Part shown: in pieces, positions 6,897 through 32,300 of the stretch
Layout of the letters: each line of letters starts with the position of its first letter
Numbering within the stretch: position 1 is the first letter of the stretch
Origin: Prosthecobacter sp.
Lineage (GTDB): Bacteria; Verrucomicrobiota; Verrucomicrobiia; Verrucomicrobiales; Verrucomicrobiaceae
Assembly: GCA_044355075.1 (NCBI GenBank)
Contig: JBIKYV010000003.1
Location: 7,324-71,323 of the forward strand
Direction of reading: 5' to 3'
Length of the DNA: 64,000 nucleotides
Notes under the pieces: generated by a model
Databases searched by the model: none
Told to the model about the DNA's origin: nothing
What the model saw: the letters and a program-made list of their open reading frames with translations, nothing else
Translations under genes and position numbers: made by a program

Positions 6897-7558
6897 GACA
6901 AGCAAGCGCGCACGCAGCTCGATTCTTGTGCGCGATTCAACCCCGCGCAGTGACTTTCTCTGAACCCTTTGTGACTTCACTCTTATCCCCACGTGCCCTG
7001 AACTAGACTCATCATAAGGAAGTCTGTATAGACCAGCCCTTATCTTCCATATCATTTCCTGATTTGGTGAGTAAAAGCTGCATGGTCCGCCAATCTGGGC
7101 CGAATCTCAGGCTAGGCCTACACCGCCTACCCGGTGGCCACCCATCGAGCTACAAATCGCCAACGGTATACAAAGATGCTAATTCCAGGTACGAAATGCC
7201 CTTTGGAGGTTAATAAATCTAGCGTTGGCAACAACGCCCAAACGGGCAAGTCCGATCAATGCCTCCTTAATTCAAAGGTGTGAGTGTGGCGTAGCCATGA
7301 TGCAGGAATGAGTATGATTGATGCTCGTGTTTGTGATAAGATAGGTTAGGTATGATTTTTAGTGGCATTGATTTTCCTAAATAAGGAGTCATGGATCGTT
7401 GAGACGATGGATGCTGTAGCTGTGCAATCAGCAAAGTATCGGCAACACAGAGTTAGGCTAGCGCCAGGAAAATGCGGGTGAAGATTGTGTTCGTGGAGTG
7501 AGTGCTTGCGAACTGGGGGAAAAGCCGCAGACTCGCCCCCCTTCCAACCTTTCTGCCC

Positions 7559-8512
7559 ATGTCTGCCAAAAAAACTGCTGTCGTCACCGGAGCTGCCGGT
7601 TTCCTCGGATCACATCTGACCGACCGCCTGCTGACAGAAGGCTATCGGGTGATCGGCATGGACAATCTAGTGACAGGCAATGTGCGCAACATTGAGCACC
7701 TGGCGGGCAATGCAGACTTTGATTTCATCAATCATGACGTCACGAAGTTCATCTACTTGCCCGGCCGTGTGGATTTGATCTTCCACTTTGCCTCACCAGC
7801 CTCGCCCATCGACTACCTGCAAATCCCGATCCAGACGCTGAAGGTGAGCTCCCTGGGGACTCACAATGCATTAGGTTTGGCTAAGGAAAAGGGCGCAACC
7901 TTTCTGATCGCTTCGACCAGCGAATGTTATGGTGATCCGCTGGAGCATCCGCAAAAAGAGACCTACTGGGGAAATGTGAATCCCATCGGTCCCCGTGGCT
8001 GCTACGATGAGGCCAAGCGCTTCGCCGAAGCAATGACCATGGCCTATCATCGGGCGCACGGGCTGGATACGAAGATCGTGCGCATTTTCAACACCTATGG
8101 CCCACGCATGAGACTAGAAGATGGACGTGTGGTGCCTGCCTTCATCGGCCAGGCATTGCAGGGGAACCCGCTGACAGTCTTTGGTGATGGCTCGCAAACA
8201 CGCAGTTTTTGTTATGTCTCTGACCTGATCGATGGCATCTACCGCCTTTCGCAAAGCAACTACCACGAGCCTGTGAACATCGGCAATCCACGGGAAATGA
8301 CCGTGCTCCAGTTCGCACAGGAGATTCTGAAGCATACCGGCACAGATTTGCCGATCATCCATAAAGAGCTGCCCACAGATGATCCAAAGGTTCGTCAGCC
8401 CGATATTGGACTTGCCCGCAAGCTACTCGGCTGGGAGCCTAAAATCGCCTTTGAGGAGGGTATCAGCCGAACGGTCGCTTATTTTCGTGACTTTCTTGCA
8501 ATCAAATCTTGA
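7559..8512 (+). CDS. UDP-glucuronate decarboxylase (UDP-xylose synthase) family SDR
   Basis: [67 protein letters not shown]. Confidence 0.92.
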
Positions 8513-8609
8513 TGCCAGAGCTGGTTTGAGAATAAAAAGATAATTAATCACGTGCGCTCACGTGCCAACAACCCACCGTGCCGAAGCTGTGACTCCCCCC
8601 CGTCCCACC

Positions 8610-9224
8610 ATGAAGTCGTCTCTCTCTATCCTCGCCGTATTGTGCTGCGTTGCTTCTTACCTTCAGGCGCAGTCAGGTGGCCCTGCTGCCAGGGTGAAGA
8701 TCAGCTCGCCTAAGGTGTCTAGCATTCAAACCCCCATGTTTGAGGCGGCAAATACACCGAACCGCAATTGGCGCCCGAAAGAATGGCTCGAATTCGATAC
8801 TGAGCTCGCCGTGACTCTGCCAGCAGCTGAGGGTGGACGGAAAGGCAGCCTTTCTTCAATGACGATCAATTACTTTGTCGCAATGAACACGCAGACAAAG
8901 GATGGCAAGTATCCGATGCTGAAGGGCTCCATCAATTATCTGGATATTCCAGCGGGGGAGCGTTGCCATGCTCTCGCATATATCAATCCCGCAACACTGC
9001 GCCGAGTTCTGGGCAAAGATGGCTTCACCAACTCCGATGTGAAAGCTGCCGCGGTCGAGGTGGTTGTTGATGGCACTGTCGTGGCTGGAGAAACGACTAT
9101 CCCAGGACGTTGGTGGGAAAAGACCGATAGCTTTGAGGTGACAGAGAATGCCGTTCTTAGCCGCAAAGAAACGCCTTTCGACATTCTTTGGGGCGACTAC
9201 GACCTGCCCACGAAAGCTAAATAA
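8610..9224 (+). CDS. Amuc_1102 family pilus-associated secreted protein
   Basis: Signal peptide, QTPMF...NWRPKEWLEFD and ETPFDILWGDYD. First gene of a locus matching Akkermansia Amuc_1102-1098. Confidence 0.75.
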   Translation: MKSSLSILAVLCCVASYLQAQSGGPAARVKISSPKVSSIQTPMFEAANTPNRNWRPKEWLEFDTELAVTLPAAEGGRKGSLSSMTINYFVAMNTQTKDGKYPMLKGSINYLDIPAGERCHALAYINPATLRRVLGKDGFTNSDVKAAAVEVVVDGTVVAGETTIPGRWWEKTDSFEVTENAVLSRKETPFDILWGDYDLPTKAK

Positions 9225-9288
9225 GTCCTGGGTGCTATAGCAAGACCTCAGCGGCTCCACCGATAGCTTAGAATCAATCAATAACAGC

Positions 9289-11022
9289 ATGGCAGACAGC
9301 AAAAGCATTGCAGTCCTGAACCTGGGTTCCCAGCGGCTTTCAGGAGCTTTATTCTCCAAGTCCGGAGGCGACTTGGTGCTCAAGAAATACGAATTTGTGG
9401 AGATGGCTGGTGATCCGACCGTGGATGCCACTCGGATTCCACAGCTAAAAATAGGCATTCAAGAGCTGGCCACTCGCCTCAAGCTGAAGTCCTCTGCTGT
9501 CTGGTACGCAGTGGCGGGTCACACGGTGTTTAGTCGTTTTGTCAAACTGCCACCCGTGCAGGAAGATCGTGTTGCCCAAATCGTTGAATTTGAGGCGCGT
9601 CAGAATGTGCCATTCCCGATCAATGAAGTGGTCTGGGACTACGAATTTGCCTCTGAGGGCGGCATTGAAACGGAAGTCGTGCTAGTCGCCATGAAGTCCG
9701 ATGCTTTGGATGAGATCGACGATCAAGTCGCCCTAGCTAAACTCGCCACGAGTGGAGTAGATGTCGCGCCTCTCGCGCTCTACAACGCTTTTCGTTACAG
9801 CTACCCAGATGTTGATGAGCCTGCGGTGCTCATTGACCTAGGTGCTCGGTCCACGAACATGCTTTTTGTCGAAAACGGTCGTTTCTTCATCCGCAACTTC
9901 TTGGTGGGGGGAGCCTCCATTACCTCGGCAATTGCCAAGGAATTCAGCATCGGTTTTGCCGAGGCGGAAACCCAGAAAATCCATCGTGGTTTTGTTGCTC
10001 CTGGCGGCGCTGTGCAGGATCACGATGACCCTGAAATTGCAGCCTTGTCGAAGGTGATCCGTAATGCAGCCTCGAATCTGCATACGCAGGTCATGCGCAC
10101 GATCACTTTCTACCGCAGTCAACAGGGTGGATCTCAGCCCAAGCGCGTTTTCATCAGTGGTGGTGGTGCATTGCTTGGCAACATGGTTGCCTTCCTGGAA
10201 GAAAAGTTGAAGCTGCCTGTGGAGATCTTCAATCCTCTTCGCGGTGTGCAGGTTGATCGCGGCCTGAATGCGGATGCCGCCGCTGCAGACGCCCCTTTTC
10301 TCGGAGAGTTGGTCGGACTCGCTCTCCGCTCTTCCAGTGGTGTTCCATGTGAGGTAGAGCTTGTGCCCACCAAGGTGGCGAATGCGCGAGATGCAGCCCG
10401 CCGCATGCCGATTTTGATGGTGGGAATGCTGCTCTTCTGGGCAGCTCTTGGCACTGGCATCTTCTATTTCCAGAACACGGAAAGAGCCGTGCGTGACAAG
10501 CTCGCGGGCATGAGTGCCGAAAATGCACGTTTGAAGAACCTCGCCGGCCAGATTTCTGCTCTGGAACAACGTCAAGGCCAGTATGCCTCGTTGAGTGAGC
10601 AGCTCGAACAGGCGGTCGCTGAACGTTCGTTTTGGGTTCGGTTGCTGACGGATTTGAACGCTAAGTTTGAGAACGACATGATCTGGCTCACCTTAGTTGA
10701 ACCGCTCAAAAATGGCAATTCCATCACCCCAGCGCTGCTAGGTCAGGAGTCCTCGGGTGAAAAGAAAGAGGAGGCGGCTGCTGGTGGCGCGACGGCTTAT
10801 AGCGTTCGCCTCCAAGGCCTCTATCGCAAGAACGACGAGGGTGAACAAATCGTTTACAAATTTGCATCAGCCTTGGCGAAGTTGCCTTGGTTTGAGATCG
10901 CTGACTTCGAAGAGAAACGCGCCCAATACGTTAGCGCGCAAAGTGGTGTCGAGGAAGACCGCTATGCCTACACATTCAAAATTGAGCTGCCCCTCAAGCA
11001 GAGCATGAACTTCAAAGACTGA
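9289..11022 (+). CDS. Amuc_1101 family PilM-like actin-fold ATPase fused to a PilN-like domain
   Basis: IAVLNLGSQR, FEARQNVPFP, LIDLGARST, GGASIT and ISGGGA, followed by a TM helix, coiled coil and PilN-like IWLT/VRLQG segment. Confidence 0.88.
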   Translation: MADSKSIAVLNLGSQRLSGALFSKSGGDLVLKKYEFVEMAGDPTVDATRIPQLKIGIQELATRLKLKSSAVWYAVAGHTVFSRFVKLPPVQEDRVAQIVEFEARQNVPFPINEVVWDYEFASEGGIETEVVLVAMKSDALDEIDDQVALAKLATSGVDVAPLALYNAFRYSYPDVDEPAVLIDLGARSTNMLFVENGRFFIRNFLVGGASITSAIAKEFSIGFAEAETQKIHRGFVAPGGAVQDHDDPEIAALSKVIRNAASNLHTQVMRTITFYRSQQGGSQPKRVFISGGGALLGNMVAFLEEKLKLPVEIFNPLRGVQVDRGLNADAAAADAPFLGELVGLALRSSSGVPCEVELVPTKVANARDAARRMPILMVGMLLFWAALGTGIFYFQNTERAVRDKLAGMSAENARLKNLAGQISALEQRQGQYASLSEQLEQAVAERSFWVRLLTDLNAKFENDMIWLTLVEPLKNGNSITPALLGQESSGEKKEEAAAGGATAYSVRLQGLYRKNDEGEQIVYKFASALAKLPWFEIADFEEKRAQYVSAQSGVEEDRYAYTFKIELPLKQSMNFKD

Positions 11023-12020
11023 TGAGCTGGATACAAGACAACAAAGGGCCCGCAGCAGTTCTCGGACTGACTGGGGCAGGTGTGATCGGACTCGGCGTCA
11101 TGCTTTTCAATGCATGGTCGGGAGCTACGGCGGCGCAGGAAGAGTTTGATATGGTGAACATCAGTCTTTCCCGACTGAAATCGACCGCTCTTGCTCCTAC
11201 GGAAGATAATCTTGCCCAAAAACAACAACTCGTTCAGGCGTATGAATCTGCGGTCGGCAAACTCTCGCTGGTGCTCTACAAGCTTCAGCCCGAGGATAAG
11301 CCGACCACCAACACAGAATTTCAGGCCAAGCTGAAGAGTCGTATCGCAGAAATCAAAAAGCTGGGCGGCGGCAAGCTGCCTGCGGAGTTCAACCTCGCAT
11401 TCGACCAATATACCAGCGAGTTGCCTAAATCCGATCAGGTGGCGGCCGAGCTCTCGAGTTATTTGGATGCCGTTGAAGAGATTGTGAAACTCGTGCTCAA
11501 GAGTGGAGCGCAGTCACTCATCATGCTGGAGCGCTCGCCTTTGACGGCAGAAAAAAGTGAATCTGAAAAGCCGCGTTCCTCTTCCTCAAAAAGTAAAGCT
11601 AAAGGTGGCGTTGCTAAACCTTCTGCGGCTCAGACCGTCAGTATCACTGAGCGCAAGCAAGTGAGACTGGCTGTGCGTGCGGATCAGTCAGCAATTCAGA
11701 CACTGCTCAGTTCTCTCGCCAGCCCTTCGGAGATGCCATTTTTCACGGTGGCAAAGCTCGTCCGCATCGAAAACGAATCCCAGATAGGTCCAGCTCGCCT
11801 TGCACAGGGCAGTGCGCCATCCGATGCAACCGAGCCTGCAGTTAGTAATGAATCTTCAGCTCCTTCAGCCCCTAGTGGCGAGACTGACGCCAAGCCTGGA
11901 CTTGCTCCTGCTGCCCCTGATTCACAAGTGGTGCTCGGTCGCGAGTACCTGAGAGCATTCCTCGAAATTGATCTTGTGAAGTTCCTCAACCCACAAACCG
12001 CTGCTGCAGCTCAACGCTGA
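11022..12020 (+). CDS. Amuc_1100 family pilus-associated membrane protein (PilO-like position)
   Basis: MSWIQDNKGPAA plus TM helix, TTNTEFQAKL, LAFDQYTSELP, FFTV...VRIENE and VVLGREYL...IDLVKF parallel the Amuc_1100 sequence as I recall it. Start overlaps the upstream stop (TGATG). Confidence 0.82.
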   Translation: MSWIQDNKGPAAVLGLTGAGVIGLGVMLFNAWSGATAAQEEFDMVNISLSRLKSTALAPTEDNLAQKQQLVQAYESAVGKLSLVLYKLQPEDKPTTNTEFQAKLKSRIAEIKKLGGGKLPAEFNLAFDQYTSELPKSDQVAAELSSYLDAVEEIVKLVLKSGAQSLIMLERSPLTAEKSESEKPRSSSSKSKAKGGVAKPSAAQTVSITERKQVRLAVRADQSAIQTLLSSLASPSEMPFFTVAKLVRIENESQIGPARLAQGSAPSDATEPAVSNESSAPSAPSGETDAKPGLAPAAPDSQVVLGREYLRAFLEIDLVKFLNPQTAAAAQR

Positions 12021-12060
12021 GTGGTTCGCCTTCAGCTGACACGCACCCCAATCCATCTCC

Positions 12061-13029
12061 ATGCAGAAGAAAAACGGCAACTACGAGAAGAACCTGCTCA
12101 TTATCGCAGCGGTTCTTGCGGCCGGCATGATTGCCTTCACCATCATCGACGGTCCCAAATTGCAGGAAAGATTAGCCCTCCAACCAGGCGCTTCTCCCAA
12201 CAACCTGAATCCTCCACCCACTGAGCGAGTAAACTCTGTCTTGCAAAGGCTGATGGAGAAAGCCAGCTGGGTTTCTCCAGTTATCAATGGCAAGCCTGTG
12301 CCGCTGAATAAATCGATTCTGTTGCTTCAAAAAGGAGATCAGCTTTTTGACCTTCAGGTCACAGAGCCTGTGTTGCGTCCCCCGATGAGCAATGAGTTCT
12401 TGGTGAAGAACGACTTGCCCAACATTGAGTCGCCCAACGTAGGTGCTTTAGATCCAGACAATGATGGATTTAGCAACGAGGAGGAATTCGAAGCAAAGAC
12501 CAATCCCAAAGACGAGCGCGAGCACCCTCCAGTGACCCGTAAATTGTTCCTGAAGCAACGCATCAGTCACGATTACATCATCAAGCTCAATAGCAGCACG
12601 CCGCCTTATCAAGTGCAGCGTATCGCCCCCGAGCCACGGGCCAGCAAGTTCGTCTCACCGGGTGATGAATATGGCTTCGATAAAGGTGTGATTCGGTTCA
12701 AGGCATTGGTTTTTGCCCAAAAAGTCATGAAGAACCCAACCACTCAGCTCGAGACTGATGTTTCCGAGTTGAAGTGCTTGGATATCTCAACCCAAAAAGA
12801 GTTTGTGTTGGTTCGTGGACAAGAAACCAATCTTGCTGATTACGAAGCAGAATTCGAATTCAGAATTGGAACCCCCGAACAGAGAAAAGTTCGTGAAGGA
12901 GAAACCTTCCAACTGCCAGGCCTTGGTGTGACCTTTAAACTATTGTCTGTCAGTGAACAAGATGCTGTGATCGTACCAGTGAAGGGTGGGGTGCCAGATG
13001 GTGAAACCATCACGATCAAAAAAGGCTGA
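12061..13029 (+). CDS. Amuc_1099 family protein with a TSP3-like Ca-binding repeat
   Basis: N-terminal TM helix, DPDNDGFSNEEEFEAKTNP motif and position between the Amuc_1100-like gene and the secretin. Confidence 0.75.
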   Translation: MQKKNGNYEKNLLIIAAVLAAGMIAFTIIDGPKLQERLALQPGASPNNLNPPPTERVNSVLQRLMEKASWVSPVINGKPVPLNKSILLLQKGDQLFDLQVTEPVLRPPMSNEFLVKNDLPNIESPNVGALDPDNDGFSNEEEFEAKTNPKDEREHPPVTRKLFLKQRISHDYIIKLNSSTPPYQVQRIAPEPRASKFVSPGDEYGFDKGVIRFKALVFAQKVMKNPTTQLETDVSELKCLDISTQKEFVLVRGQETNLADYEAEFEFRIGTPEQRKVREGETFQLPGLGVTFKLLSVSEQDAVIVPVKGGVPDGETITIKKG

Positions 13030-13115
13030 CTAAAAAAAACAAAAAACATCTCGCCAAAACCTTCGGCTTCTTGCTAAACAATCCAACTTCTTGCCAATTT
13101 TTTCAGACTGTGTCC

Positions 13116-15659
13116 ATGATCACCATCTCCCGAATGAAAAGAAAAAAAACCTCTCTCGCTTGGATTATCGCCGCTGCGATGCCTGTGGCATATCAAACGA
13201 ATGCTCTTGCGGGCGAAGGTGCTAGTGATGCTTCCAGCGTTCCAGGTATTGCAGAACGTGAGATCTCGAGGCGGCTTGCACGTATTCAGGATGCGCAGAA
13301 AGCCATGCAACGTGGTGATGAACTCTTTGCTCAAGGCGATCTCGATGGTGCGCTTTCTCAGTATCGCTCAGCCAAGGAAATTTTCGACCAGTTGCCCAAC
13401 GCGCCTTTCATCCAAGACTGGCGAGATCTCGCTAATCTGAAGTTTGCAGACTGCTCTGTAGCGGTGGGTCGTCAGAAAGTTGCTGCTGGCGATTACGTGG
13501 CTGCCAGAAAACTCATAGACGAGGCTTTTGCTGCCGTGCCTGGTCACAAAAAAGCACAGCTTCTTGTGAGTCAGTTGGATGATCCTGATCGCTGGCCTCA
13601 AGCACTGACTCCTGAGCATGTTGAAAACGTGGGTAAAGTTCAGAAGGGTCTTGTGACTGCCAACAGCTCAGTTGAGATTGGTAACTATGACAAGGCGCTT
13701 GAGGAATATGAAGATGTGCTTCGCATAGACCCCTATAACACGGCGGCTCGCCGTGGAATGGAAAACGCAGAGCGTAAGCGCGCTGACTACCTCAAGACGG
13801 CTTATGATCACAATCGCATTCGCATGATCAACATGGTGACTGAAGCTTGGGAGCACAAGCCACCAGTCAAAGGATTCCAGGTTGAAGGAACATCGGGCGG
13901 CAGCAAAGCTCCCACAGTTTACTTGAGCCAGAAGATGCAAAAGATCGTCTTCCCTCAGGTTCAATTCTCAGGTGCTAGCATCGATGAAGCAGTCGAGTTC
14001 CTTCGTGTCAAAAGCCGCGACTTGGATACCTTTGAGACCGACCCAGCTCGTAAGGGTGTCAACATCATCCTCAAGGCAGGTGAAAATGCCCCGACAGCCT
14101 CCATCAGTCTTGATCTGAAGGATGTGCCAATGATGGAAGCTCTTCGCTATGTTACCGAACTAGCTGGCATGAAGTTCAAAGTGGAGCCCTTCGCAGTATT
14201 GATTGTGCCCGTCACAGAAACCACCACAGAGCAATTCACACGCATTTACAAAGTTCCACCTGACTTCGAAACCATGACCAGTGGTGGTGGTGATGCAGCG
14301 GCTCCTGCGGCAGCAGCTGATCCCTTCGCAGCAGGCGGCGCTGCCCCTGCCGCAGCTTCTGGTTTAATTAAGCGCCAAAACGCTAAAGAGATCCTAACGA
14401 GCCAAGGTATTGCCTTCCCCGAGGGCGCTACTGCGGTCTTCAACAAGGTGACTTCGCAGCTGATCGTCAAAAACACCCAGCCCAACTTGGATCTGGTCGA
14501 AGCGTTTGTGGACTCGATCATTGGCCGAATCACCAAGCAGGTTTACGTGACCACAAAATTTGTCGAAGTGACCCAGAAAAACACAGATGAACTGGGTTTT
14601 GACTGGTTGCTTGGCGGCCTTGGCGTCAATGCTGACAATCTTCAAGTCGGTGGTGGCACCAATGGTAACTGGGGTGGCCGCGTCAATTACACAGGTTCGA
14701 TCGCCGATCTTGTCACCAATGGACAGATTTCCCCTGTAACCCGTGGCCTCAGAAGTGGCTCTCGTGCGATCCGTGGTGATAGCATCGACTCTTTGTTCAA
14801 TTCGCTGGATGCAACATCTGATACCGTTTCTCCCGGAGTCCTTTCCCTCGCGGGTATTTTTACTGATCCTCAGTTCGGTGTTGTGATGCGTGCTTTGTCG
14901 CAGCGCAAAGGAGTTGACCTCATGAGTGCTCCAAGCGTCACCACCAAAGGCGGTCAGCCTGCCACGGTCGAAGTTGTTCGCGAATTCATCTATCCTACCG
15001 AATTTGATCCTCCACAGATCCCCACCAACGTCGGTGGTGGTGGTGGCGGCGGTGGTGGTGGTGGCGGCGGAACAACGATTGTTTCGATTCCAGTGACTCC
15101 AACAACACCAACAGCCTTCGAGATGCGTCCAGTCGGTGTGCGCATGGAAGTTGACCCTGTGATTGGTGAGAATGGTTCCATTGATTTGAATCTCGCCCCT
15201 GAAGTCACGGAGTTTGATGGTTACATCAACTATGGCAGTCCGATCTACAGCGTGTCTCCGAACGTGCCGATCCTCGACATTTTCGGCAACCTTCTTGGCA
15301 CGATTCCCTCAAGCCGTCTCGAACTGACCCCGAACATCATCAACCAGCCGATTTTCTCTACACGTAAAGTCAAGACATCGGTTACGGTTTGGGATGGTCA
15401 AACGGTGGCCTTGGGTGGTTTGATTCGTGAGGACGTGCAAGATGTTGAGGACAAAGTTCCTGTGCTTGGCGACCTTCCTTTTGTCGGTCGTGCCTTCCGC
15501 TCGGAAGTTGAAGATCACTTCAAGCGCAATCTTATGATCTTCGTGACAGCAAGCCTCATCGATCCAGCTGGACAGCGCATCAAGCTTCAGGGCTCAGGTG
15601 GCTCTAGCGAAGAGGGAGCCGATCAGGCCAATCCTCTTCTGCCAGCTGTTGGCAACTAA
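13116..15659 (+). CDS. Amuc_1098 family secretin (PilQ/GspD-like) with N-terminal TPR region
   Basis: Secretin core motifs DLMSAPSVTTKGGQPATVEVVREFIYP, VTVWDGQTVALGGLI and KVPVLGDLPFVGRAFR, N-domain FSGASIDEAVEFL, and TPR-like helices. Confidence 0.92.
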   Translation: MITISRMKRKKTSLAWIIAAAMPVAYQTNALAGEGASDASSVPGIAEREISRRLARIQDAQKAMQRGDELFAQGDLDGALSQYRSAKEIFDQLPNAPFIQDWRDLANLKFADCSVAVGRQKVAAGDYVAARKLIDEAFAAVPGHKKAQLLVSQLDDPDRWPQALTPEHVENVGKVQKGLVTANSSVEIGNYDKALEEYEDVLRIDPYNTAARRGMENAERKRADYLKTAYDHNRIRMINMVTEAWEHKPPVKGFQVEGTSGGSKAPTVYLSQKMQKIVFPQVQFSGASIDEAVEFLRVKSRDLDTFETDPARKGVNIILKAGENAPTASISLDLKDVPMMEALRYVTELAGMKFKVEPFAVLIVPVTETTTEQFTRIYKVPPDFETMTSGGGDAAAPAAAADPFAAGGAAPAAASGLIKRQNAKEILTSQGIAFPEGATAVFNKVTSQLIVKNTQPNLDLVEAFVDSIIGRITKQVYVTTKFVEVTQKNTDELGFDWLLGGLGVNADNLQVGGGTNGNWGGRVNYTGSIADLVTNGQISPVTRGLRSGSRAIRGDSIDSLFNSLDATSDTVSPGVLSLAGIFTDPQFGVVMRALSQRKGVDLMSAPSVTTKGGQPATVEVVREFIYPTEFDPPQIPTNVGGGGGGGGGGGGGTTIVSIPVTPTTPTAFEMRPVGVRMEVDPVIGENGSIDLNLAPEVTEFDGYINYGSPIYSVSPNVPILDIFGNLLGTIPSSRLELTPNIINQPIFSTRKVKTSVTVWDGQTVALGGLIREDVQDVEDKVPVLGDLPFVGRAFRSEVEDHFKRNLMIFVTASLIDPAGQRIKLQGSGGSSEEGADQANPLLPAVGN
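15033..15071 (+). repeat. In-frame poly-Gly trinucleotide repeat, [(GGT)4(GGC)2]x2 GGA
   Basis: 13 consecutive Gly codons inside the secretin core. Confidence 0.9.
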
Positions 15660-15680
15660 CACACTTTGATTCATGTTAAG

Positions 15681-15713
15681 ACAGGAGGCTAAACCGGCCT
15701 CCTGTTTTTTTTT
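15681..15713 (+). terminator. Intrinsic terminator after the pilus locus
   Basis: ACAGGAGGC-taaaccg-GCCTCCTGT 9 bp stem followed by a T run ending at 15713. Confidence 0.85.
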
Positions 15714-16316
15714 ATGAAATCATGGATCGTCACTGGAGGAGCTGCTTGCGGGAAAAGCATCTTCATTCAGACGCTCGCTTCGCATTTGGGAAGCGCGTTG
15801 CACATTTTTTCCTGTGATCGAGAGGTCGCCAATCTAATGGCCGATCGGGAAACCCAGGTCGTTTTGGTTCAAGCTTTTGGAACTCAGATTTTGAATCCTG
15901 ATGGAACGATCTCTAAAAGCGCGCTTCGAGACCTTGTGTTCAAGGATGCACGAAAAAGACAAGACCTTGAAGCGATCCTCCACCCTCCTGTGCTACGATC
16001 GCTGGAAAGATCGAGGTTAGAGGCTAAGGCGCAGGGTGCCGAAGTTTTCCTTGCGGAAGTGCCGCTCTACTATGAGATTGGCTCTACAGTAGAAGCGGAT
16101 CTGATCATCGTAGTGGCTGCCAGCCAAACGGTGCAGATTAGGCGCTTGATGGAAATTCGGGGACTCGACCAAGATACCGCTCACGGGCTGCTTGGTTCCC
16201 AATGGACCATTGAGGCCAAGATTGAAAAAGCGGACGTGGTCATCTGGAATGATGGTGACCTCAGAGCTTTTTTGGATCAGGCGCTGACGCTGGGAAAACA
16301 GATTCGGCCAGCATGA
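15714..16316 (+). CDS. coaE: Dephospho-CoA kinase
   Basis: IVTGGAACGKS P-loop, LEAILHP, EVPLYYE and ADVVIWNDG. Confidence 0.9.
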   Translation: MKSWIVTGGAACGKSIFIQTLASHLGSALHIFSCDREVANLMADRETQVVLVQAFGTQILNPDGTISKSALRDLVFKDARKRQDLEAILHPPVLRSLERSRLEAKAQGAEVFLAEVPLYYEIGSTVEADLIIVVAASQTVQIRRLMEIRGLDQDTAHGLLGSQWTIEAKIEKADVVIWNDGDLRAFLDQALTLGKQIRPA

Positions 16317-17788
16317 ACTTAACCGCCCCCCCTGAAGCACTTTCTGATTCGATGGAAAAGCCACTTGTGGCTCCTTCGGTCGAACTCTCCGAGCCAGCAC
16401 CCGTTGCGGTGAGAGAGATGATTCGCACGGAACCTGCGAATGAATCCTCCGACAGCGCTCAAGAAGTGACAGAGCGTCCCTCTTTCGCCGAAAGAACATC
16501 AGCGCCTCAAGCGGAGCCACCTTTCCCAATAGAGATCTCCCTAAACGACCTTCATACCAAGAGTTTGGCCGATCTTCATGACTTGGCCAATCTCGTCGGC
16601 TATCGAATCAATGCTGCCAGAACAAAGCACCAGTTGATCTATGATCTGCTGTCGTGGATGGCCGAGCATCGAACCCGTGTTCTGGTGGACGGCATCCTCG
16701 AAGTAGGCAGTGAGAATTTTGGTTTAATCAAATACTCCTCCTTCAGCTTCGCACCCTTACCTGAAGATGTGTTTGTGCCACTTTTCTTGGTCAGGAAGTT
16801 CAACCTCCGCGCGGGCAATCGCATCTCCGGGGTGGTCAGAGCTCCCAAAGACAAGGACAAATACTTGGCCATCGATCGGATCACACATGTCGATGGTATC
16901 GAAATTGACTCGTACGAAGCACCTTTGCATTTTGACAAACTGACCGCGACTTTCCCGAAGCAACGCATCATTCTGGAAACCGCTAAGCCTTGTCCCGTCT
17001 CGGCAAGAATCATGGACTTGATCGCGCCGCTTGGTAAAGGTCAGCGTGGTTTGATCAATGCTTCGCCTCGTTCCGGCAAGACGATGATGCTCAAGGATAT
17101 TGCACGGTGCATTGTTCAAAATCACAAAGAGATCACGCTGATCATCTTGTTGCTCGATGAGCGCCCTGAAGAAGTTACCGATTTTGAGGAATCCGTCAGT
17201 GGTTGTGAAATCTACAGTAGCACCTTCGACGAAAGCCCCAAGCGTCACTGTCAGTTAGCTGAGTTAGTGCGTGAGCGTGCTTGTCGTCTGGTGGAGCAAC
17301 GCAAAGATGTGGTTATCTTGCTTGACTCTCTGACACGTCTAGCTCGGGGTTACAATTCACTCATGGGTGGCAAGGGAAGAACCATGTCCGGCGGTATTGA
17401 CGCCAAAGCATTGGTGAAACCAAAGAAATTTTTCGGGGCAGCCCGTAATGTGGAGGAAGGTGGTAGCCTAACCATCATCGCTTCAGCGCTCATTGAGACG
17501 GAAAGCAAAATGGATGAGGTGATTTTCGAAGAATTCAAAGGCACCGGCAACATGGAAGCGACGCTGGATCGTGAGATCAGCGAACGGCGTATTTTCCCTG
17601 CGCTTCATCTACTCAAGTCGGGAACCCGTAAGGATGACCTTCTGTATCATCCGGATGAGTTTCGCCGCATTATGGCCATTCGGCGCCAATTGGCTCAGGT
17701 GCCCGCCGTGGAGGCTTTGGAATTATTGATTCGGAACATTCACCGCACCAACAACAACGCGGAGATCTTGCTCACTGGCCTGAAATAA
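16313..17788 (+). CDS. rho: Transcription termination factor Rho
   Basis: [57 protein letters not shown] and RRIFPA. Confidence 0.96.
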
Positions 17789-25043: not shown

Positions 25044-26255
25044 ATGAAGATCGAGCTGCCATCCCTCGATTCGGAAACCATCCAGTCCTTCCTGCAGCAC
25101 AATCATGTCATTGTGGGGGGCATTGGGCTGTTGTTTTTCATCCTCGGCGTCTGCATCGGCGCTGTGCTCTGGGGTAGGTACAAGAAGCAGCTCGCCTTGG
25201 CGCGGCTAGAGATTCATGGGCAGCGGGAAAAGCTGACCCAGGTGAAGCAGCGGCTCACCGAGCCGACGGTCAGTCCTGCCGCCATGCCCAGGATCGCATC
25301 ACCGCCGGTGTCAGACGCTGGGGCCCCTGCGCCTGAAGCGTCCACTCCCATGCCTGCGGAAATGGCGGCACCTGCTGCGGTGGCTGAGACGACGCCGACA
25401 AGCGCACCTTCATGGCCTGAACTTCCGGTCAGCAGCTTGCCCACATTCCCAGTGGTCGAAAATGTAGCTCCAGCCCCAGCGACAACCCGTTGGGAACTTC
25501 CCGCGTTAGAGGCTCCGCCGCGCATCAATGCGCCCGTGCCTGCTTCTCCCGTGGGATTGCAACATGGAGAGCTTTCCCCCAAGCGTCGTCCCATCGTCTT
25601 AGCGCACCGACACAAGTCTCCCGCATCTCTTCCGCCTGCTGCAGATTTATCTGCATTCGAGTTGCCCGCTGTTGCGCCCGATCCTGAGACTGAAGTCGAG
25701 GCGTTCGGATTCCTGATGGGGGACGATGTGCAAGAGGACGAACCCAAGGTGTCGATCTCTGCCCTTGCAGCCATCGTGCAAGGCCATGCGCCAGCGCCCG
25801 ATTTGCCCAAACCACTATCTCCAGTCAACGCATCAAGCCTGTCGAGTTCAGCGGCGAGCTTGCCGATGGCTGCAAGTCCTGTGACTTCGCCTTTACCTCA
25901 GGCTGCCGAGATGATCCCGCCGATCGAGCCAATCCTGCCGGTGGCCATCGAGTTCGATCGTCATCTTGGTCTGATCTACCGCCAGCCACCGATCGTTCCT
26001 GATGACTTGACCCAGATTCGCGGGGTCTCTGCGGCTCTGTCGGCACGCCTGAATGAACTGGGGGTTTACACCTACCGTCAAATCGCTGCCTGGGATGAAA
26101 ACCAAGTTCGTGAATTTTCTCAACGCCTCGCTTTTAAAGACCGAATCACACGCGAGCAATGGATCCAGCAAGCCCGCGGTCTGAATGAGGCACGAAATCA
26201 GACCCTGGACCTCGCCGCTCACCCCCAGCAGCATTTGAGCGATGGTGCCTCATGA
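25044..26255 (+). CDS. Membrane-anchored Pro/Ala-rich protein with C-terminal helix-hairpin-helix domain
   Basis: Single N-terminal TM helix, long low-complexity linker and DDLTQIRGVSAALSARLNELGVYTYRQIAAW...W motif. Confidence 0.75.
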   Translation: MKIELPSLDSETIQSFLQHNHVIVGGIGLLFFILGVCIGAVLWGRYKKQLALARLEIHGQREKLTQVKQRLTEPTVSPAAMPRIASPPVSDAGAPAPEASTPMPAEMAAPAAVAETTPTSAPSWPELPVSSLPTFPVVENVAPAPATTRWELPALEAPPRINAPVPASPVGLQHGELSPKRRPIVLAHRHKSPASLPPAADLSAFELPAVAPDPETEVEAFGFLMGDDVQEDEPKVSISALAAIVQGHAPAPDLPKPLSPVNASSLSSSAASLPMAASPVTSPLPQAAEMIPPIEPILPVAIEFDRHLGLIYRQPPIVPDDLTQIRGVSAALSARLNELGVYTYRQIAAWDENQVREFSQRLAFKDRITREQWIQQARGLNEARNQTLDLAAHPQQHLSDGAS

Positions 26256-26331
26256 GGATGCATTTCGAAGCGTTCCAGCGTGGGCCTATGCTGGCCTGCG
26301 CGGCTGCGTTTGGGGAGAGAAGTGGCTTTTG

Positions 26332-29300
26332 ATGAAAAGGCTCGGCCTTGTGCTTGGGTTATTCGGATGGATGGGATGGTGTCCCTCGCTGGTGGCTCAG
26401 GAGGCAGCGCGGCCTTGGTCCGAGCGTGAGACACGGCTGGCGAACGAGTATCTTTCTCTGTTGGTGACGCAGCCTGAGTATGGCCGCGTGGTGGATTTGG
26501 TCTGGGCACTTTACGAGAAACATGAGGCGACGGCGCTGCTGATGCAGAGTGTGGCGGCGCAAGTGCAGTCCCAGCGGCATCCGGCGCTGGTGTTGGTGCT
26601 CGGGCACCTTCAGCGAAAGGCGGGTGATCTGAAGAAGGCAGCCACTTCTTACGAGCAGGCGCTCAGCAGTGTTGAGCACGAGCCGCTGGCCTTGCTCGCG
26701 CTGGCGGACGTGGCCCAGGAGCAGGGCGATCCGACCAAGGGTTTTCAGTGGATGGGCCGACTGAATGCGCTGCTGCCGGACACGGATAGGCGTAAGGTGG
26801 ACGTGTTGTTGCGGCTAGGCACGCTAGCTTTGGCGGCGCAAAAGAATGAAGATGCCGTGCGTGCCTGGGAGCAGGCGGCGCGGCTGCGTACGGGAGATTT
26901 CGCCCTGACGCGTCAGGTCGCAGAGCTCATCTTACGGGCAGGTTTTCCCGAGCGTGCGGCTGCGTTTTACACGGCGCTGGCGGATCAAAGTGATCCGCAG
27001 AAGCGGTTGGATGCGCTCTACGATCTGGCCCGTATTCATGAGCATGCGGATCAGTTTGAAAAAGCCGACGCTGCGCTGAAGAAGGGGCTGACGTTGCTGG
27101 ATTTTCGTGATGGCCGCTATGCCGATTTTTTCCGCCGCCGCGTGCGTCTGCACGAGCGCTTTGGTTTCTTGGATGACCTGCGCCAGCAGTTGCAAAAAGG
27201 CACAGGGGAGCAGGCTCTGCGGGATCTGGCGCGCTTTCATGAGATGACCGCTGACGCCGACGCGAGGGTGGAGACGATGCGTCAGTTGGTGAAAGTGGCA
27301 CCAGACGTCGATGATTACCGCTGGGAATTGGTGCGGCTACTGCTAGATCACGAGGGGACGGCTGAAGCCTCGAAGCTACTGGACGAGCGTCTGAAAGGGG
27401 ATGTGAGCGATTTGCCAGCCCTCGTTTTTTTGCGATGCGAGGCTGATCTGCGCGCAGGACATCAGGTCAAAGCGGTGGCGAGGCTACGCAAGCTGCTGGA
27501 GATGACGGGCAAGCCTGAGGTGGAGAAATTGGCGCTGACCTTTGCCCAGCAGCGAGCTTTGGATGAGATCATCGAGTTCATTTTGCAGGCCAGAGTCGCA
27601 CGGGAGCCTGATGGTGCAGAGGCTGTGTTCGAGCTCGCGGCTTATTATCGCGTCCGCAAGGACATGGCAGCGGCTGATGCGCTGCTGCGCCGCTTTACCG
27701 CAGGTGCGTCGGATGATGTGGAGCGGCAGCGTCGGCTGAATGAAGCGGCGTCCTTTATGGCTGCAGGCAGCGACTTGGACACGGCCATCATTTTAGCACG
27801 TGAGGCTGTGGCCAAAGCGGGTGCTGGACGTGAGGAATTTCTGCGACTCGCCGATTTACTGGCCGAGCACGCTGAGCCTGAGGAGGCGCTGGATTGGCTA
27901 GAACGGGCCTGGAAGGTCTCGGAAAATGAAGAAGACAGCGTGGATGTCGATGAGCGCATTTTTTCGCTGCTGCTGGGAGAAAAGAAGAAGGAGCAGGCGA
28001 AGCCGCGTGGCACGGGCGGAGATTTCCAACTGCCGGATGTGTTTACGGGAAAAGGTTTTGGCACGACCGACACGTCTGCTGCTGTCGAACCTGAAGTGCA
28101 GGTGAGTGAGTTACTGCTGGAGCGAGCGCGGCAGCTTTTTTCTAAAGCGCTGCCGTCTGGTTCGGATCAGGCAGTCGCCACGTCTCGTGTGGCTCGGCTC
28201 GAACTCTTCCGCGCGGCGTGGTGGTCAGTGCGCACGGGTCTGCACGATGAGGCCTATGCGGTTTTTCGTCAGCTCGAGCAGGCTGCGCCTGGGCAGAGTC
28301 TGCCGCTGGAGGCGGAGAAGCTACTGCTGGAGCTAACGCTTGAGGACAAAAACACGGGGCTAGCGCTGCGGGTGCTGCGTCGATTGATCGCCAAGGATGC
28401 CTCGAATCCCATCCGCTACACGTTACGCCTTGCGGAGTTGTTGCTGGAGGATGAGCAAGCCGCCTCTGCGGCCATCAATGTGGGGCTTTCCCATGAACGT
28501 ACGGGCTGGCGTCTAGCGAATGAGCCGCCTCCGCCGGGTCGTGCAGCCACGATGTTGCTGGAGCGTGCCTATCGTCAGGCACCAGACTCGGAGCAGTTGC
28601 TGAATGCGTTGACGCAATGCTACACGCTGCAGCAGCGGCCGGATCATGCGCTGAAGCTTTGGCAGCAGGCGATCGAGCGCGCCACGGGCAGCACAGCCAT
28701 CATGCTCTTGCAGCGTTACGCGGAGATGTTGCTGCAACGGGGTAAGCTGCCGGAGCATGTGGCCGCACAGTTGCGTATCGTGGAAATGGAGACGGAGGTG
28801 AAACGCCGCCGCGAGACCTTCAAGCGTTTCTTGGATCGCCTGCTCTGGGCTGGGGAGAGTGGCGGTGAGTTGCCAGAGGAAGTGCTGCGAGATCGTTTGA
28901 AGCTGATTCGCGATTCGCTCTTGGCCTTGGTGAAAAAACATCCGTTTGATGGCTTTTACCACGAAGCATTGGCGGGTGTGCATGAGCGCTCGGGAGATGC
29001 GGCACAGGCCTTTCAGTCGATGAAGCTGGCCTACTACACCGCGCCAGATACGCCCTTTTCGCTAGATCAGCTGCGCGAAGCGGCCTTGAAGGCGGGCGAC
29101 CTGAAGGCGGCGATTTATTTCCAAAAGCAAATCGCCGCGAGTGCCGCTCCGGCCCAAGCGGCGGCAGAGTCTCGACGTCTGGTCGAGATGCTGGAGCAGA
29201 CCTTTCAGATCGCTGAGGCGGATCGCGTGCGGCGGCGGCTGGAGAGCCGGTTTTCACAGGACGCTCCAGCCCTGGAGGCGCTGGCTGAGCATTACCGCAC

Positions 29301-32300
29301 GACGGGACAGGATGAGGCCGAGCGCCGAGTCTATGAGCAGATCGCTCGTGTGCGACCGTGGGATGCGAAGTCCGAACTGCGGCTGGCCCTCAAGTGCTTG
29401 CGCCTAGCGGATGAGGATGCGGCAAGGCGCTACCTGAAGGAAATCCTGCGTCGCACCCAGCCGCAGGCGCTGATGCCATCGGCAGGCCAGAGTCCAGTGC
29501 GTCTGCCGTTGCCACTGGCGGAGCAGAGAAAGTCGGGTGTGCCGGGACCGGTGACGGAGATTTTAGCGGATTTGGACACGGTGCCTGGGCTCACCAGCGC
29601 GGAGGTGTCCACGCTACGCGCCTTTCTCAGCCTGCCACGGCCTGAATTTGCGGAGCTGCCTGCTGAGGTGCCGCAGATCCGCCTGCGCGCCATTGAAGAG
29701 CTGGCTCGGCTGCATGAGCGTGCGGGCACGGTGCAGGCTTGGCAGGCCGAGATTACGAGCCTGAAATCGCCCGTGGATCGTCTCTGGGCTTTGTATTTTG
29801 CGAAGTTAGGGGTGCCTTTCCGCCAGGAGCTAGATGGGTTGATGAGTGGTAAGGGCACAGGTCGCCTGGGCTTAGAGGAGCGTTTTTGCCACACGTGGTT
29901 GACGATTCGCACGGGAGGCATGGAGCAGGCGCTGGCTTGGGCGACGCAGCCCGCCCTGCGGAGCGAGCTGCAGGAGCTGCGCCAGAGGATGCTGCTCGCC
30001 GTGGCGGCGACGCTGGCTGACATGGCAGACTACCGATTCCTTAAAGGGGAACTGGAGCGTTTGGGTACGCTGCGCAGTGTCTCGCTGCTAGATATTCTGC
30101 GGCGCTTGCAGGATCAGCAGCGCTACCCTGAGGCGCTAGAGTTGGGCGAAAGTCTGAGCCGACACAATCCTGCACTGGGCAGTGCTTTTGTTTTCTCGCT
30201 GGCCCGCATCGCGGAGGCGGCGGAGCGTTGGGATCTGGCGCGCGATTATCTGGGGCGCGTGGTGCGTGGCACCGTGCAGCCTGAGGCTTACCGTGGTACT
30301 TACGATCCCTACCTCTTCAGCCTGAGCGCAGCGAACCGACTGGCCACGAGTGCGGAGGAGCGGGAAAAGAATCTGAACTCAGCCTGGCGTCACCTCCAGG
30401 CCACGCCTGCCTCGGCGATGACCAGCCTGCGCAAGGCGGCAGTCGTCGGTCTAGCGGGTGCGCCGGAGAAGGCTGCACAGGAGATGGAAGCGCTGCTGAC
30501 GGGAGATTTTCTGCACGCCCGGCAGATCGGGGAGCCGCGAGGGATGCTGATGCCTCAGGGCTCGCCACGCTGGGAGGAACCCATGCACCTGCGCACGCTT
30601 TGGGAGGAGACGCGCGAGATTCAGGCGCGCTTCACCCACGAAGGTCTGGGTGAGGTGGTGCGCCAGGTGAATGACCGGCTTTCTTCCCGATGGGGCAGCA
30701 TCGCGCTCAGTTCGCGCTCAGGGTTAGAGTTTGGTGAATGGCGTCTGGGACACCTAATCCGCCGGATGCGCACTGTGGACTATCCAACTCGCCTGCGGAT
30801 GCTGCGTGAGCATCTGGCCAGCGTGGATATGCGCCAGGAGGTGTCGGTGGACACATTGAGCGAGCTTGGGGGCCGTTTAGAGGCTGCGGGCATGTCGCGC
30901 GAGGCTATCGAGGTCTATGGCATGTTGCCCAGTCGTGCGCCTGCAAATCCCGAGTATGCGCAGCTGCTGATCCGCGTGGCGGAGGCCTCGCTAGACACGC
31001 GCACGGGGTTGAAGTTCACCCTACAACTGCTGGAGGCTGAGCCGCCCTACAAACCTCCGCAACCGGGGGACGAGGTGCTGCGCGAGAAGCACGCCCATTT
31101 TCTAGCGCTGGAGCATGATCTGACGGAACTGCGGCAGCGCGGCTATTTGCCCGCGCCTACGAAGGTGCTGCAGGGGCGCATCCCGCATGAGGTGCCCTAC
31201 CTGCGTGAGCTGGCACTGCTGTGTGAAAAAAGAGGCTTGGATGAACAAGCGTTGGAGGCATGGACGCGCCTGCACGCAGCCTTTGAGGCTAACCAAGAGC
31301 GTGGCATCCAGCCCGATGCGGAAAGCTGTGTGCATCTGGCCCGCCTATGGGTGAAGCAAAAGCAGGTGCCGCAGGCGCTGGAAGCACTGCGTCGGGTGCC
31401 CCTGCTGGAAAAGACAGGTGAGCAGGGTAGGGAGGCCCTGAAGCTGCGTGCCCAGCTCGCGGCTGAGTCGGCTCTTTGGGATGAATTTCGTCAAATGATG
31501 ACCATGGCGGTGAAGCTCAGGGCGCTGGATGCCATCACCCACATCGCGGATCTGTGCCGTCGCCACGCACGGCAGCAGGACGGGCTGGATTTTCTTACCC
31601 AGGCGGAGCGCACCTTGAAGGAGGACGCGGAGCGTTTCACCCTGCGCTTGGAGTTTTTGCGGCTGCTGGCGGCTGATCCGGCTTGGACGCCCACGGTAGG
31701 TCGTGCGCAGGTGGCGGCGCTGTTTCGTGTGCGGCATCGTGGACGTGAGGTGTTGGCGCGCGTGTTGGAATGGATGACTGCGGAGGCTGCGGGTAGGAAT
31801 CGGGCGGCTTGGCTGCCGATCCTGCGTGCGGAGGCTCACGCGGGCACAGATCGCCCGCTGGCGGCACTTGCGCTCAGTGCCTTTGCCGCTGAGCCCGTGC
31901 CACATTTGGCAGACGACCTCGCGATTGGCTGGCAGGGGCTGAGTGACAGTGATCGTGCCTGTGTCGAACTGGCCGCCGAGCGCTTGCTGAAATTAGGGCG
32001 TGCAGATCTGGCCTGGCAGGCCTGCCAGGTGCTGCAGGAGCTACCCTCCATGCGCCTAGATAGTCGCAAGCAACCGCTGATGCTGCGTGTGGCGCATGCT
32101 CAGGGGGATCGTGTGCGCGTGCAGGAGCTGTTTGCTGAAGTTGTGCGCATGCCGGTGCCAGGTGGCAGCCGGACGGTGGAGTGGGCGCAGGCGCTGCGTG
32201 AGTGCGGTGAGCTGGGCCTGGCTCGTGAGCTTTACCAGACGGCGCTTGAACGCTTGGAAGCCACGGCGGGGTCTCAGCCTGAGATGGTGGCCGCTTGGGC

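Follow-up and report, generated by a model that had tools for sequence, protein, structure and literature searches.

A stretch of 64,000 nucleotides from the genome of a Prosthecobacter species (GenBank assembly GCA_044355075.1, contig JBIKYV010000003.1, positions 7,324 to 71,323; hereafter the window) carries, between positions 8562 and 15659, five genes which are in our estimate quite probably the ortholog of the Amuc_1102-1098 cluster of Akkermansia muciniphila, known as MUL2, and form the non-motor, envelope-spanning half of a machine resembling a type IVa pilus, likely devoted to the capture of polysaccharides or glycoproteins. That the locus is real, at these coordinates, is confirmed far beyond chance. 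In Akkermansia, the Amuc_1098-1102 cluster was called pili-like and Amuc_1100 was shown to be an agonist of TLR2 (Ottman 2017, PMC5332112). It was named MUL2 and tied to the acquisition of mucin (Davey 2023, as quoted in PMC13174399, bioRxiv 10.64898/2025.12.30.696933 and PMC12418764). The role in mucin acquisition and the activation of TLR2 are on record for A. muciniphila only.

Five families in a fixed order

An earlier examination of the letters alone, which we term the sequence-only reading, had proposed that five co-oriented genes reproduce the series Amuc_1102 to Amuc_1098. The map of open reading frames bears this out, with all five genes on the plus strand:

8610-9224 (+), Amuc_1102-family gene, 204 aa from the ATG at 8610 (the frame is open from a GTG at 8562, which would yield 220 aa)
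9289-11022 (+), Amuc_1101-family PilM-PilN fusion, 577 aa
11022-12020 (+), Amuc_1100-family gene at the PilO position, 332 aa
12061-13029 (+), Amuc_1099-family gene at the PilP/GspC position, 322 aa
13071-15659 (+), Amuc_1098-family TPR-secretin, 862 aa

The families of reference for MUL2 are NCBIfam NF042912, NF042425, NF038287, NF045709 and NF042424, together with Pfam PF28028 for Amuc_1100. When the NCBIfam models of the Amuc_1098-1102 families were run, as the sequence-only reading had advised, each product exceeded the equivalog cut-off of its matching family: 167 bits against 55 for Amuc_1102_rel, 760 against 650 for Amuc_1101_fam, 288 against 180 for Amuc_1100_fam, 282 against 50 for Amuc_1099_fam and 1022 against 750 for Amuc_1098_fam.

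From the cytoplasm to the outer membrane

The second protein had been taken for a fusion of PilM and PilN, and this is what it is: as one part has the PilM fold while the other matches PilN by profile, the fusion is established by homology. The chain comprises, in order, an actin-like PilM domain (aa 1-355), an ELVP motif, a single transmembrane helix (aa 375-393 by hydropathy), a coiled coil and a small alpha/beta domain. The pilM model TIGR01175 scores 155 bits on it (cut-off 133), and Pfam PilM_2 matches its N-terminal half with an E-value of 5e-33, a region where FtsA also matched. An AlphaFold model was obtained with a predicted local distance difference test (pLDDT) value of 80, displaying a long helix (361-459) followed by the small periplasmic alpha/beta domain. 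Foldseek retrieved as its top matches the PilM structures 5eou, 3jc8_Ma and 2ych (E 1e-23 to 1e-27), and the PilM proteins of P. aeruginosa, M. xanthus and T. thermophilus superpose on residues 1-355 of the model with a TM-score of ~0.8, normalised to the target. The Pfam PilN model gave no match on this protein. A profile of the C-terminal half of the family, built with members from Kiritimatiellia and Lentisphaeria, matches PilN of M. xanthus (3jc8_Na, E 1e-11), in an alignment that sets ELVP on the PilM-binding INLLP motif and extends through the transmembrane helix and the coiled coil.

At the other end of the series, the Amuc_1098 homolog is the TPR-extended secretin that had been announced: besides its family match, Pfam finds Secretin at the C-terminus and several TPR families in a region covering ~aa 60-230, while no AMIN or N0 domain was detected in the Pfam and NCBIfam scans. 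Its true start is probably the ATG at 13116 or that at 13134, rather than the TTG at 13071; a signal peptide is read from the ATG at 13134. The protein also contains a run of 13 glycines (aa 655-667, window 15033-15071), encoded by GGT/GGC repeats.

The product of the first gene, described as a secreted Amuc_1102-like protein, retains this description after family analysis. Translation from the ATG at 8610, the start that had been retained at the outset and which the signal peptide makes plausible, yields a Sec-type signal peptide, MKSSLSILAVLCCVASYLQAQ (MKSSL...), and phmmer matches the solved structure of Amuc_1102 (7DSZ, E 5e-19) over residues 38-212. Reading the sequence directly, we find no class III prepilin cleavage motif; with an ordinary Sec signal peptide and no such motif, the protein is not a substrate of prepilin peptidase. 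A resemblance of the Amuc_1102 fold to archaeal pilins has been reported (PMC13174399).

Two bitopic proteins stand between the fusion and the secretin. The Amuc_1100 homolog has one N-terminal transmembrane helix (aa 11-29), then a helical or coiled region, a low-complexity insert rich in alanine, proline and serine, and a conserved C-terminal block. Single-sequence phmmer against the PDB found no match for it. A profile of 23 homologs matches the crystal structures of Amuc_1100 (6KNY, 6LAD and 6LAF; E 3e-14) over nearly the full length, and Amuc_1100 is described as structurally similar to PilO/PilN in bioRxiv 10.64898/2025.12.30.696933. The Amuc_1099 homolog has likewise a transmembrane helix at aa 11-29, followed by a poorly modelled linker and by a C-terminal region (aa 160-322) which is all-beta in the model (pLDDT ~85). 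Its residues 131-151 (window 12451-12513, LDPDNDGFSNEEEF) fit the pattern LDxDxDGFxNxEE, which by its sequence would be a bacterial thrombospondin type 3 (TSP3) calcium-binding repeat. Pfam TSP3_bac matches the protein of the window, and a scan of the family finds it in 17 of 27 members; D131, D133, D135, G136, F137 and E142 are invariant in an alignment that includes Kiritimatiellia and Lentisphaeria, and within Verrucomicrobiaceae the motif is invariant or nearly so. We found no mention of this motif in the available literature passages dealing with Amuc_1099.

Transcription unit and neighbours

The gaps separating the five genes are 64, 0, 40 and 41 nt, in order, the null value reflecting an ATGA overlap between the stop of the Amuc_1101 homolog and the start of the Amuc_1100 homolog. 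Because the gaps are short, with this overlap, and because a terminator follows the last gene, the five genes look like one transcription unit closed by a strong terminator, which begins 19 nt past the stop of the secretin gene and reaches the start of coaE:

15678-15718 (+), intrinsic terminator found by the terminator scan, with a 13-bp stem and a T run
15714-16316 (+), coaE, dephospho-CoA kinase, above its NCBIfam cut-off
16313-17788 (+), rho, NCBIfam Rho, above its cut-off

The coaE-rho pair is a conserved neighbour and a marker of synteny, not a component of the machine. A promoter scan returned no more sites than in shuffled sequence, and no Rfam RNA family was found anywhere in the window. 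Directly upstream, at 7502-8512 (+), lies a gene of the NAD-dependent sugar-nucleotide dehydratase/epimerase family, below every NCBIfam cut-off, whose placement there recurs in many of the 80 Verrucomicrobiaceae loci considered below. Farther away, an open reading frame of 2096 aa (26242-32532, +) falls within a stretch of 60-63% G+C and strong positive GC skew.

Motor and fibre genes elsewhere in the genome

There is neither pilin nor PilB nor PilC in the operon, as the sequence-only reading had seen, and the genome search that it recommended locates all of them elsewhere. The host metagenome-assembled genome (MAG) contains four PilB/GspE-type ATPases, one of which is split over the ends of contigs C237 and C238 (among 10 matches of a T2SSE search, three are long and one is split across contigs), three PilC/GspF genes, at least 12 prepilin-type N-termini and four secretins. 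A T2SSF search matches four genes. Besides one FtsA-like frame, the only PilM_2 match above cut-off is that of the operon. At the end of C237 and the start of C238 are found the split pilB, a second pilB, pilC and a GspG-like prepilin. Two paralogous four-gene clusters, at C167:16523-21888 and C195:62-5176, each encode a large protein, a GspM-like protein, an unmatched protein and a GspD-like secretin; the large protein of C167 has a Pfam PilN-domain match and its C195 counterpart matched no family. These clusters, which resemble a type II secretion system (T2SS), can be paired with the gspF-plus-pseudopilin clusters that sit apart from them on C151 and C266; the pilB-pilB-pilC-pilin group of C237/C238 is then the one PilB/PilC/pilin set that neither of these systems would claim. 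With these two systems accounted for, this group, together with a tandem pair of pilT genes located in the window itself, 26 kb downstream of the operon, would be the likely partners of the Amuc-type scaffold, by elimination from gene counts. The pair, from which we infer candidate retraction motors, scores 441 and 433 bits with TIGR01420 pilT_fam (cut-off 319):

41329-42438 (-), PilT/PilU-family ATPase, first of the pair
42493-43605 (-), PilT/PilU-family ATPase, second of the pair

PilT is above cut-off in all 30 cassette-positive genomes examined, and below cut-off or absent in a group of genomes of ~2.4 Mb (f8) and in another of 0.9 Mb (f11).

Distribution, habitat and the question of host signalling

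Among 80 related loci of Verrucomicrobiaceae, the order 1102-1101-1100-1099-1098 is never broken, as far as contigs reach, and 53 of them display all five genes followed by coaE and rho. Identity to the copy of the window varies from one protein to another:

Amuc_1102 homolog, 37-94%
Amuc_1101 homolog, 54-94%
Amuc_1100 homolog, 39-92%
Amuc_1099 homolog, 45-96%
Amuc_1098 homolog, 53-98%

A wider survey, with the Amuc_1100 model at E <= 1e-3, covered 401 genomes of the phylum as defined by GTDB, at least 90% complete. The model matches 304 of them, in 150 of the 183 genera, with only 25 matches exceeding the family cut-off. The weak matches were tested by re-searching 30 sampled genomes: 24 of 25 have a strong Amuc_1101_fam match (240-517 bits) immediately upstream on their strand, and this synteny upholds the proposal of a phylum-wide system. 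In these 30 genomes, the best Amuc_1099 match comes after the Amuc_1100 match in 19 cases and an Amuc_1102 match precedes that of Amuc_1101 in seven. All 18 loci that were fetched have an Amuc_1098-type secretin downstream, and two of them have coaE-rho after it as well. Five of the re-searched genomes have no Amuc_1100 match; G012, one of these, lacks any Amuc_1101_fam match too, and the other four show weak ones only (E 2e-4 to 5e-9). Genomes negative for Amuc_1100 include reduced genomes of 0.9 Mb and a family of ~2.4 Mb genomes, and the latter would fit the published account, in which MUL2 is less well conserved in Chthoniobacterales and absent from Methylacidiphilales (PMC13174399).

The carriers include Kiritimatiella glycovorans and other Kiritimatiellia, Oligosphaera ethanolica, Victivallis, an isolate of Lentisphaerota and an Opitutales MAG. 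Database records of these genomes name the Amuc_1101 homolog simply PilM. Our literature search found no paper pairing Amuc_1100 with Kiritimatiellia or Lentisphaeria, so that this extension of the cassette may be unpublished. In five of the fetched loci, from Lentisphaeria and other distant genomes (L105, L108, L110, L111 and L117), the secretin gene is tandemly duplicated after 1101-1100-1099.

The organism itself is a free-living freshwater member of Verrucomicrobiaceae, near Prosthecobacter and Brevifollis. Its MAG has 4.18 Mb in 301 contigs, 55% G+C and a completeness of ~93%. Among loci in named genomes, the nearest belongs to a MAG from a lake, labelled Verrucomicrobiaceae, whose five proteins share 92-98% amino-acid identity with those of the window; next come a pond MAG, then Prosthecobacter and Brevifollis MAGs and isolates. 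DNA of the window is found in metagenome runs from lake water, freshwater and aquatic samples, in at least eight studies. The habitat had been surmised to lie outside the gut, which these runs and the lake and pond origin of the closest relatives substantiate. Metatranscriptome contigs (150-380 nt, 97-100% identity) from three freshwater or riverine runs fall on the 1102, 1101, 1100 and 1098 genes and weakly support transcription of the operon in situ; a pile-up at 15031-15070 is the poly-Gly repeat and is drawn from unrelated low-complexity sequences.

It is in this light that we may consider whether selection maintains the locus as a means of signalling to an animal host, through TLR2 agonism as in Akkermansia. 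Orthology to Amuc_1100, a TLR2 agonist, would speak for it. Against it, lakes, ponds and other freshwater are where both the host of the window and its 80 nearest relatives were sampled. The cassette is also older than the gut lineage, given its presence in Kiritimatiellia and Lentisphaeria, and the Amuc_1100 homolog is, alongside that of Amuc_1102, the least conserved of the five proteins. Host signalling as a selected function is scarcely credible, and we reject it on habitat and phylogenetic spread. The habitat likewise favours, by inference, the suggestion made at the outset that the ancestral function has no relation with host signalling.

A proposed scaffold for a retractile fibre, and its alternatives

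We may now picture how the parts would work together. The Amuc_1101 homolog would provide a cytoplasmic PilM ring fused to PilN; the bitopic Amuc_1100 homolog, at the PilO position, would presumably pair with the PilN part; the Amuc_1099 homolog would bridge the inner-membrane platform and the secretin, as PilP or GspC do; and the TPR-extended Amuc_1098 homolog would be the outer-membrane pore. The Amuc_1102 homolog would be a Sec-exported beta-sandwich protein. The two pilB genes, pilC and prepilin of the other contig, with the two pilT genes, would make with this scaffold a retractile fibre, whose most likely role is the attachment to, and capture of, particles of polysaccharide or glycoprotein, not host signalling. 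This role is proposed by analogy with Akkermansia, whose acquisition of mucin requires MUL2, and with aquatic Akkermansiaceae.

Several observations weigh against this interpretation. Aligned by hhalign with the PilN half of the Amuc_1101 family, the Amuc_1100 family reaches a probability of 0.7%, and its profile finds no PilO match in the PDB. The sequence-only reading had spoken of a membrane protein at the PilO position: the position and the N-terminal transmembrane helix stand, while sequence similarity to PilO or PilN is not detected, so that the assignment fits only the position of the gene, the topology of its product and the published structure. The same holds for the protein said to be at the PilP position, of which the position stands and a PilP or GspC match does not, whether by fold, Pfam or profile. 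Foldseek of the whole Amuc_1099 model against the PDB gave nothing below E 0.07, although a whole-model search could miss a PilP- or GspC-like sub-domain; a Pfam scan of 27 members with E-values up to 10 found TSP3_bac only and no PilP or GspC, and a profile of diverse members retrieved from the PDB only designed Ig-like proteins and EF-hand-like motifs, again without PilP or GspC. There is moreover no lipobox, a transmembrane anchor taking its place; the protein is thus PilP-like by position only, plus a beta-rich C-terminus, and its topology is closer to that of GspC. Judged by the refuting conditions that the sequence-only reading had set for itself, the proposal survives for the models of the Amuc families, for both halves of the PilM-PilN fusion and for the domain of the secretin; no ferredoxin-like fold of PilO or PilN was found.

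Other difficulties lie outside these two proteins. As the operon lacks pilin, PilB and PilC, its pairing with the genes of C237/C238 is by elimination only, in a MAG which is fragmented into 301 contigs and 93% complete. PilT is also present in 14 of 20 genomes of the phylum without an Amuc_1100-family match, and co-occurrence therefore does not tie PilT to the cassette. A second TPR-secretin of the Amuc_1098 family exists in the genome at C8:4188-6593 (-), with 914 bits against a cut-off of 750; it lies 60 nt from the contig end, with a sulfatase-like open reading frame downstream, and the assembly yielded no second gene for Amuc_1101 or Amuc_1100. As evidence of transcription the RNA is thin; DNA carry-over or close strains could also account for the metatranscriptome contigs. 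Finally, the secretin of the operon scores slightly higher with the GspD model TIGR02517 (138 bits, cut-off 351) than with the PilQ model TIGR02515 (109 bits, cut-off 284), far below both cut-offs; it is a member of the secretin superfamily, not a PilQ equivalog.

This last point, together with the GspC-like bitopic topology of the Amuc_1099 homolog, where PilP would be a lipoprotein, the want of a pilin in the operon and a genome rich in GspG-like pseudopilins, would accord with a scaffold and pore of the type II secretion kind, exporting soluble proteins such as glycan-degrading enzymes or the Amuc_1102 protein by means of a short pseudopilus, instead of building a pilus at the surface. We hold this to be unlikely: a PilM-PilN fusion takes the cytoplasmic place that GspL would have, the two separate GspM/GspD-like clusters of C167 and C195 already match the two gspF-plus-pseudopilin clusters, PilT-family retraction ATPases are present, and in Akkermansia the cluster has been associated with pili-like structures and with the uptake of mucin (PMC5332112, and bioRxiv 10.64898/2025.12.30.696933).

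The flow might also be reversed, the secretin and platform acting as an inward gate for large glycans (a 'selfish' uptake into the periplasm or into mucinosome-like compartments), while the pilus-like parts pull the substrate. The cassette is near-universal among polysaccharide-degrading lineages of the Planctomycetes-Verrucomicrobia-Chlamydiae (PVC) group, and PMC13174399 and PMC12418764 report that MUL genes are necessary for intracellular mucin accumulation in A. muciniphila and that fluorescent fucoidan accumulates inside locus-bearing aquatic Akkermansiaceae. Against this, the sequence carries no sign of a direction of transport, and the genes fixed beside the operon are coaE and rho, with no carbohydrate-active enzyme or transporter gene fixed there. 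Furthermore, we know of no secretin that imports polysaccharide, DNA uptake through PilQ being, to our knowledge, the sole precedent for import. An import device appears to us distinctly unlikely.

DNA uptake has itself to be considered, in the form of a natural-competence pilus machine of the Thermus or Neisseria type. PilMNOPQ sets serve both type IV pili and DNA uptake in Thermus (PMC6325625) and the secretin weakly matches the model of the DNA-uptake porin HofQ. With 86 bits against a cut-off of 554, this match is however far too low, and the published phenotypes of Akkermansia concern mucin, not DNA, which makes competence very unlikely as the purpose of the locus.

A scaffold for a retractile, capturing fibre is thus the interpretation that we retain. 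It could be extended into a bolder one, in which the cassette, often fixed beside coaE-rho, is a core machine that Verrucomicrobiota sensu lato (Verrucomicrobiia, Kiritimatiellia and Lentisphaeria) inherited vertically from their ancestor. It would be a 'glycan-harpoon' pilus specific to the PVC group, capturing large polysaccharides or glycoproteins, possibly delivering its catch inwards through the secretin and using the Amuc_1099 protein as a calcium-dependent connector, TLR2 activation by Amuc_1100 being then an accident of life in the gut. We put this forward tentatively, as a rather doubtful conjecture.

Significance

Both the families and their occurrence outside the gut have already been curated or published (NCBIfam, Pfam, PMC13174399): Pfam PF28028 is precomputed on all the Amuc_1100 homologs that we listed, Prosthecobacter proteins already carry at NCBI the label 'Amuc_1100 family pilus-like protein', and an article of April 2026 in the ISME Journal reported that aquatic Akkermansiaceae and other Verrucomicrobiales conserve the synteny of MUL2, with the secretin, coaE and rho comprised (PMC13174399). 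The order found in the window, with coaE-rho after the secretin, agrees with Fig. 2B of that article, and what we report is to this extent confirmatory. Four elements go slightly beyond the literature accessible to us: the PilN half of Amuc_1101, now proven by homology; for the Amuc_1099 family, an invariant TSP3 motif and a negative search for PilP; the gene inventory from which pilB-pilB-pilC-pilin and pilT-pilT emerge as partners; and the syntenic cassette of Kiritimatiellia and Lentisphaeria.

Amuc_1100 is being developed into a postbiotic effector. The presence of the complete operon in free-living lake bacteria, and its spread over three classes, indicate that this protein has a structural place in an envelope machine of the pilus-like kind, and that host signalling is not what it evolved for. 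Such a structural view helps to interpret the biology of Amuc_1100 and its disputed 'outer membrane' location. Carriers that can be cultured, namely Prosthecobacter fluviatilis, Brevifollis gellanilyticus, P. dejongeii and Kiritimatiella glycovorans, could be additional models for dissecting the machine.

Comparison with known systems

The T2SS assembly GspL-GspM-GspC-GspD has the same architecture, with an actin-like domain joined to a bitopic protein, a bitopic partner, a TM-anchored connector and a secretin, and GspD is the best generic model match of the Amuc_1098 homolog. The present locus departs from it in that its cytoplasmic domain is PilM, not GspL, in that the genome has separate GspM/GspD-like clusters, and in that no pseudopilin genes are adjacent; scans of the operon proteins with Pfam and NCBIfam gave no GspM or GspC match.

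In type IVa pili, PilM is an actin-like protein of the cytoplasm that binds ATP, PilP is an inner-membrane lipoprotein with a beta-sandwich that binds the N0 domain of the secretin, and PilQ-type secretins have AMIN, N0 and N1 domains besides the secretin domain. PilO, a paralog of PilN, is bitopic too, and its periplasmic domain has a ferredoxin-like fold. With the PilMNOPQ systems of P. aeruginosa, M. xanthus and T. thermophilus, the locus shares the PilM fold, a homologous PilN motif, transmembrane helix and coiled coil, a bitopic protein at the PilO position and a secretin placed last in the operon, while the genome also encodes PilB, PilC, PilT and prepilins. It differs from them in many respects: PilM and PilN are fused in one protein; the protein at the PilO position has no detectable similarity to PilN or PilO; that at the PilP position is TM-anchored, bears a TSP3 motif and has no PilP match; the secretin has TPRs and no detected AMIN/N0 domain, and fails the PilQ cut-off; and an extra secreted protein, that of the Amuc_1102 family, heads the operon.

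Compared with MUL2 of Akkermansia, the differences are of another kind. The host lives free in freshwater and is not a specialist of gut mucin, the system is known here from genes alone, the proteins are strongly diverged, to the point that the Amuc_1100 structures are found only with a profile, and the genome has its second Amuc_1098-family secretin. Common to both are the five families, each above cut-off, in the same order and orientation, the same coaE-rho neighbours, and the same domain plan, where a secreted 1102 protein accompanies a PilM-PilN fusion, two bitopic proteins and a TPR-secretin.

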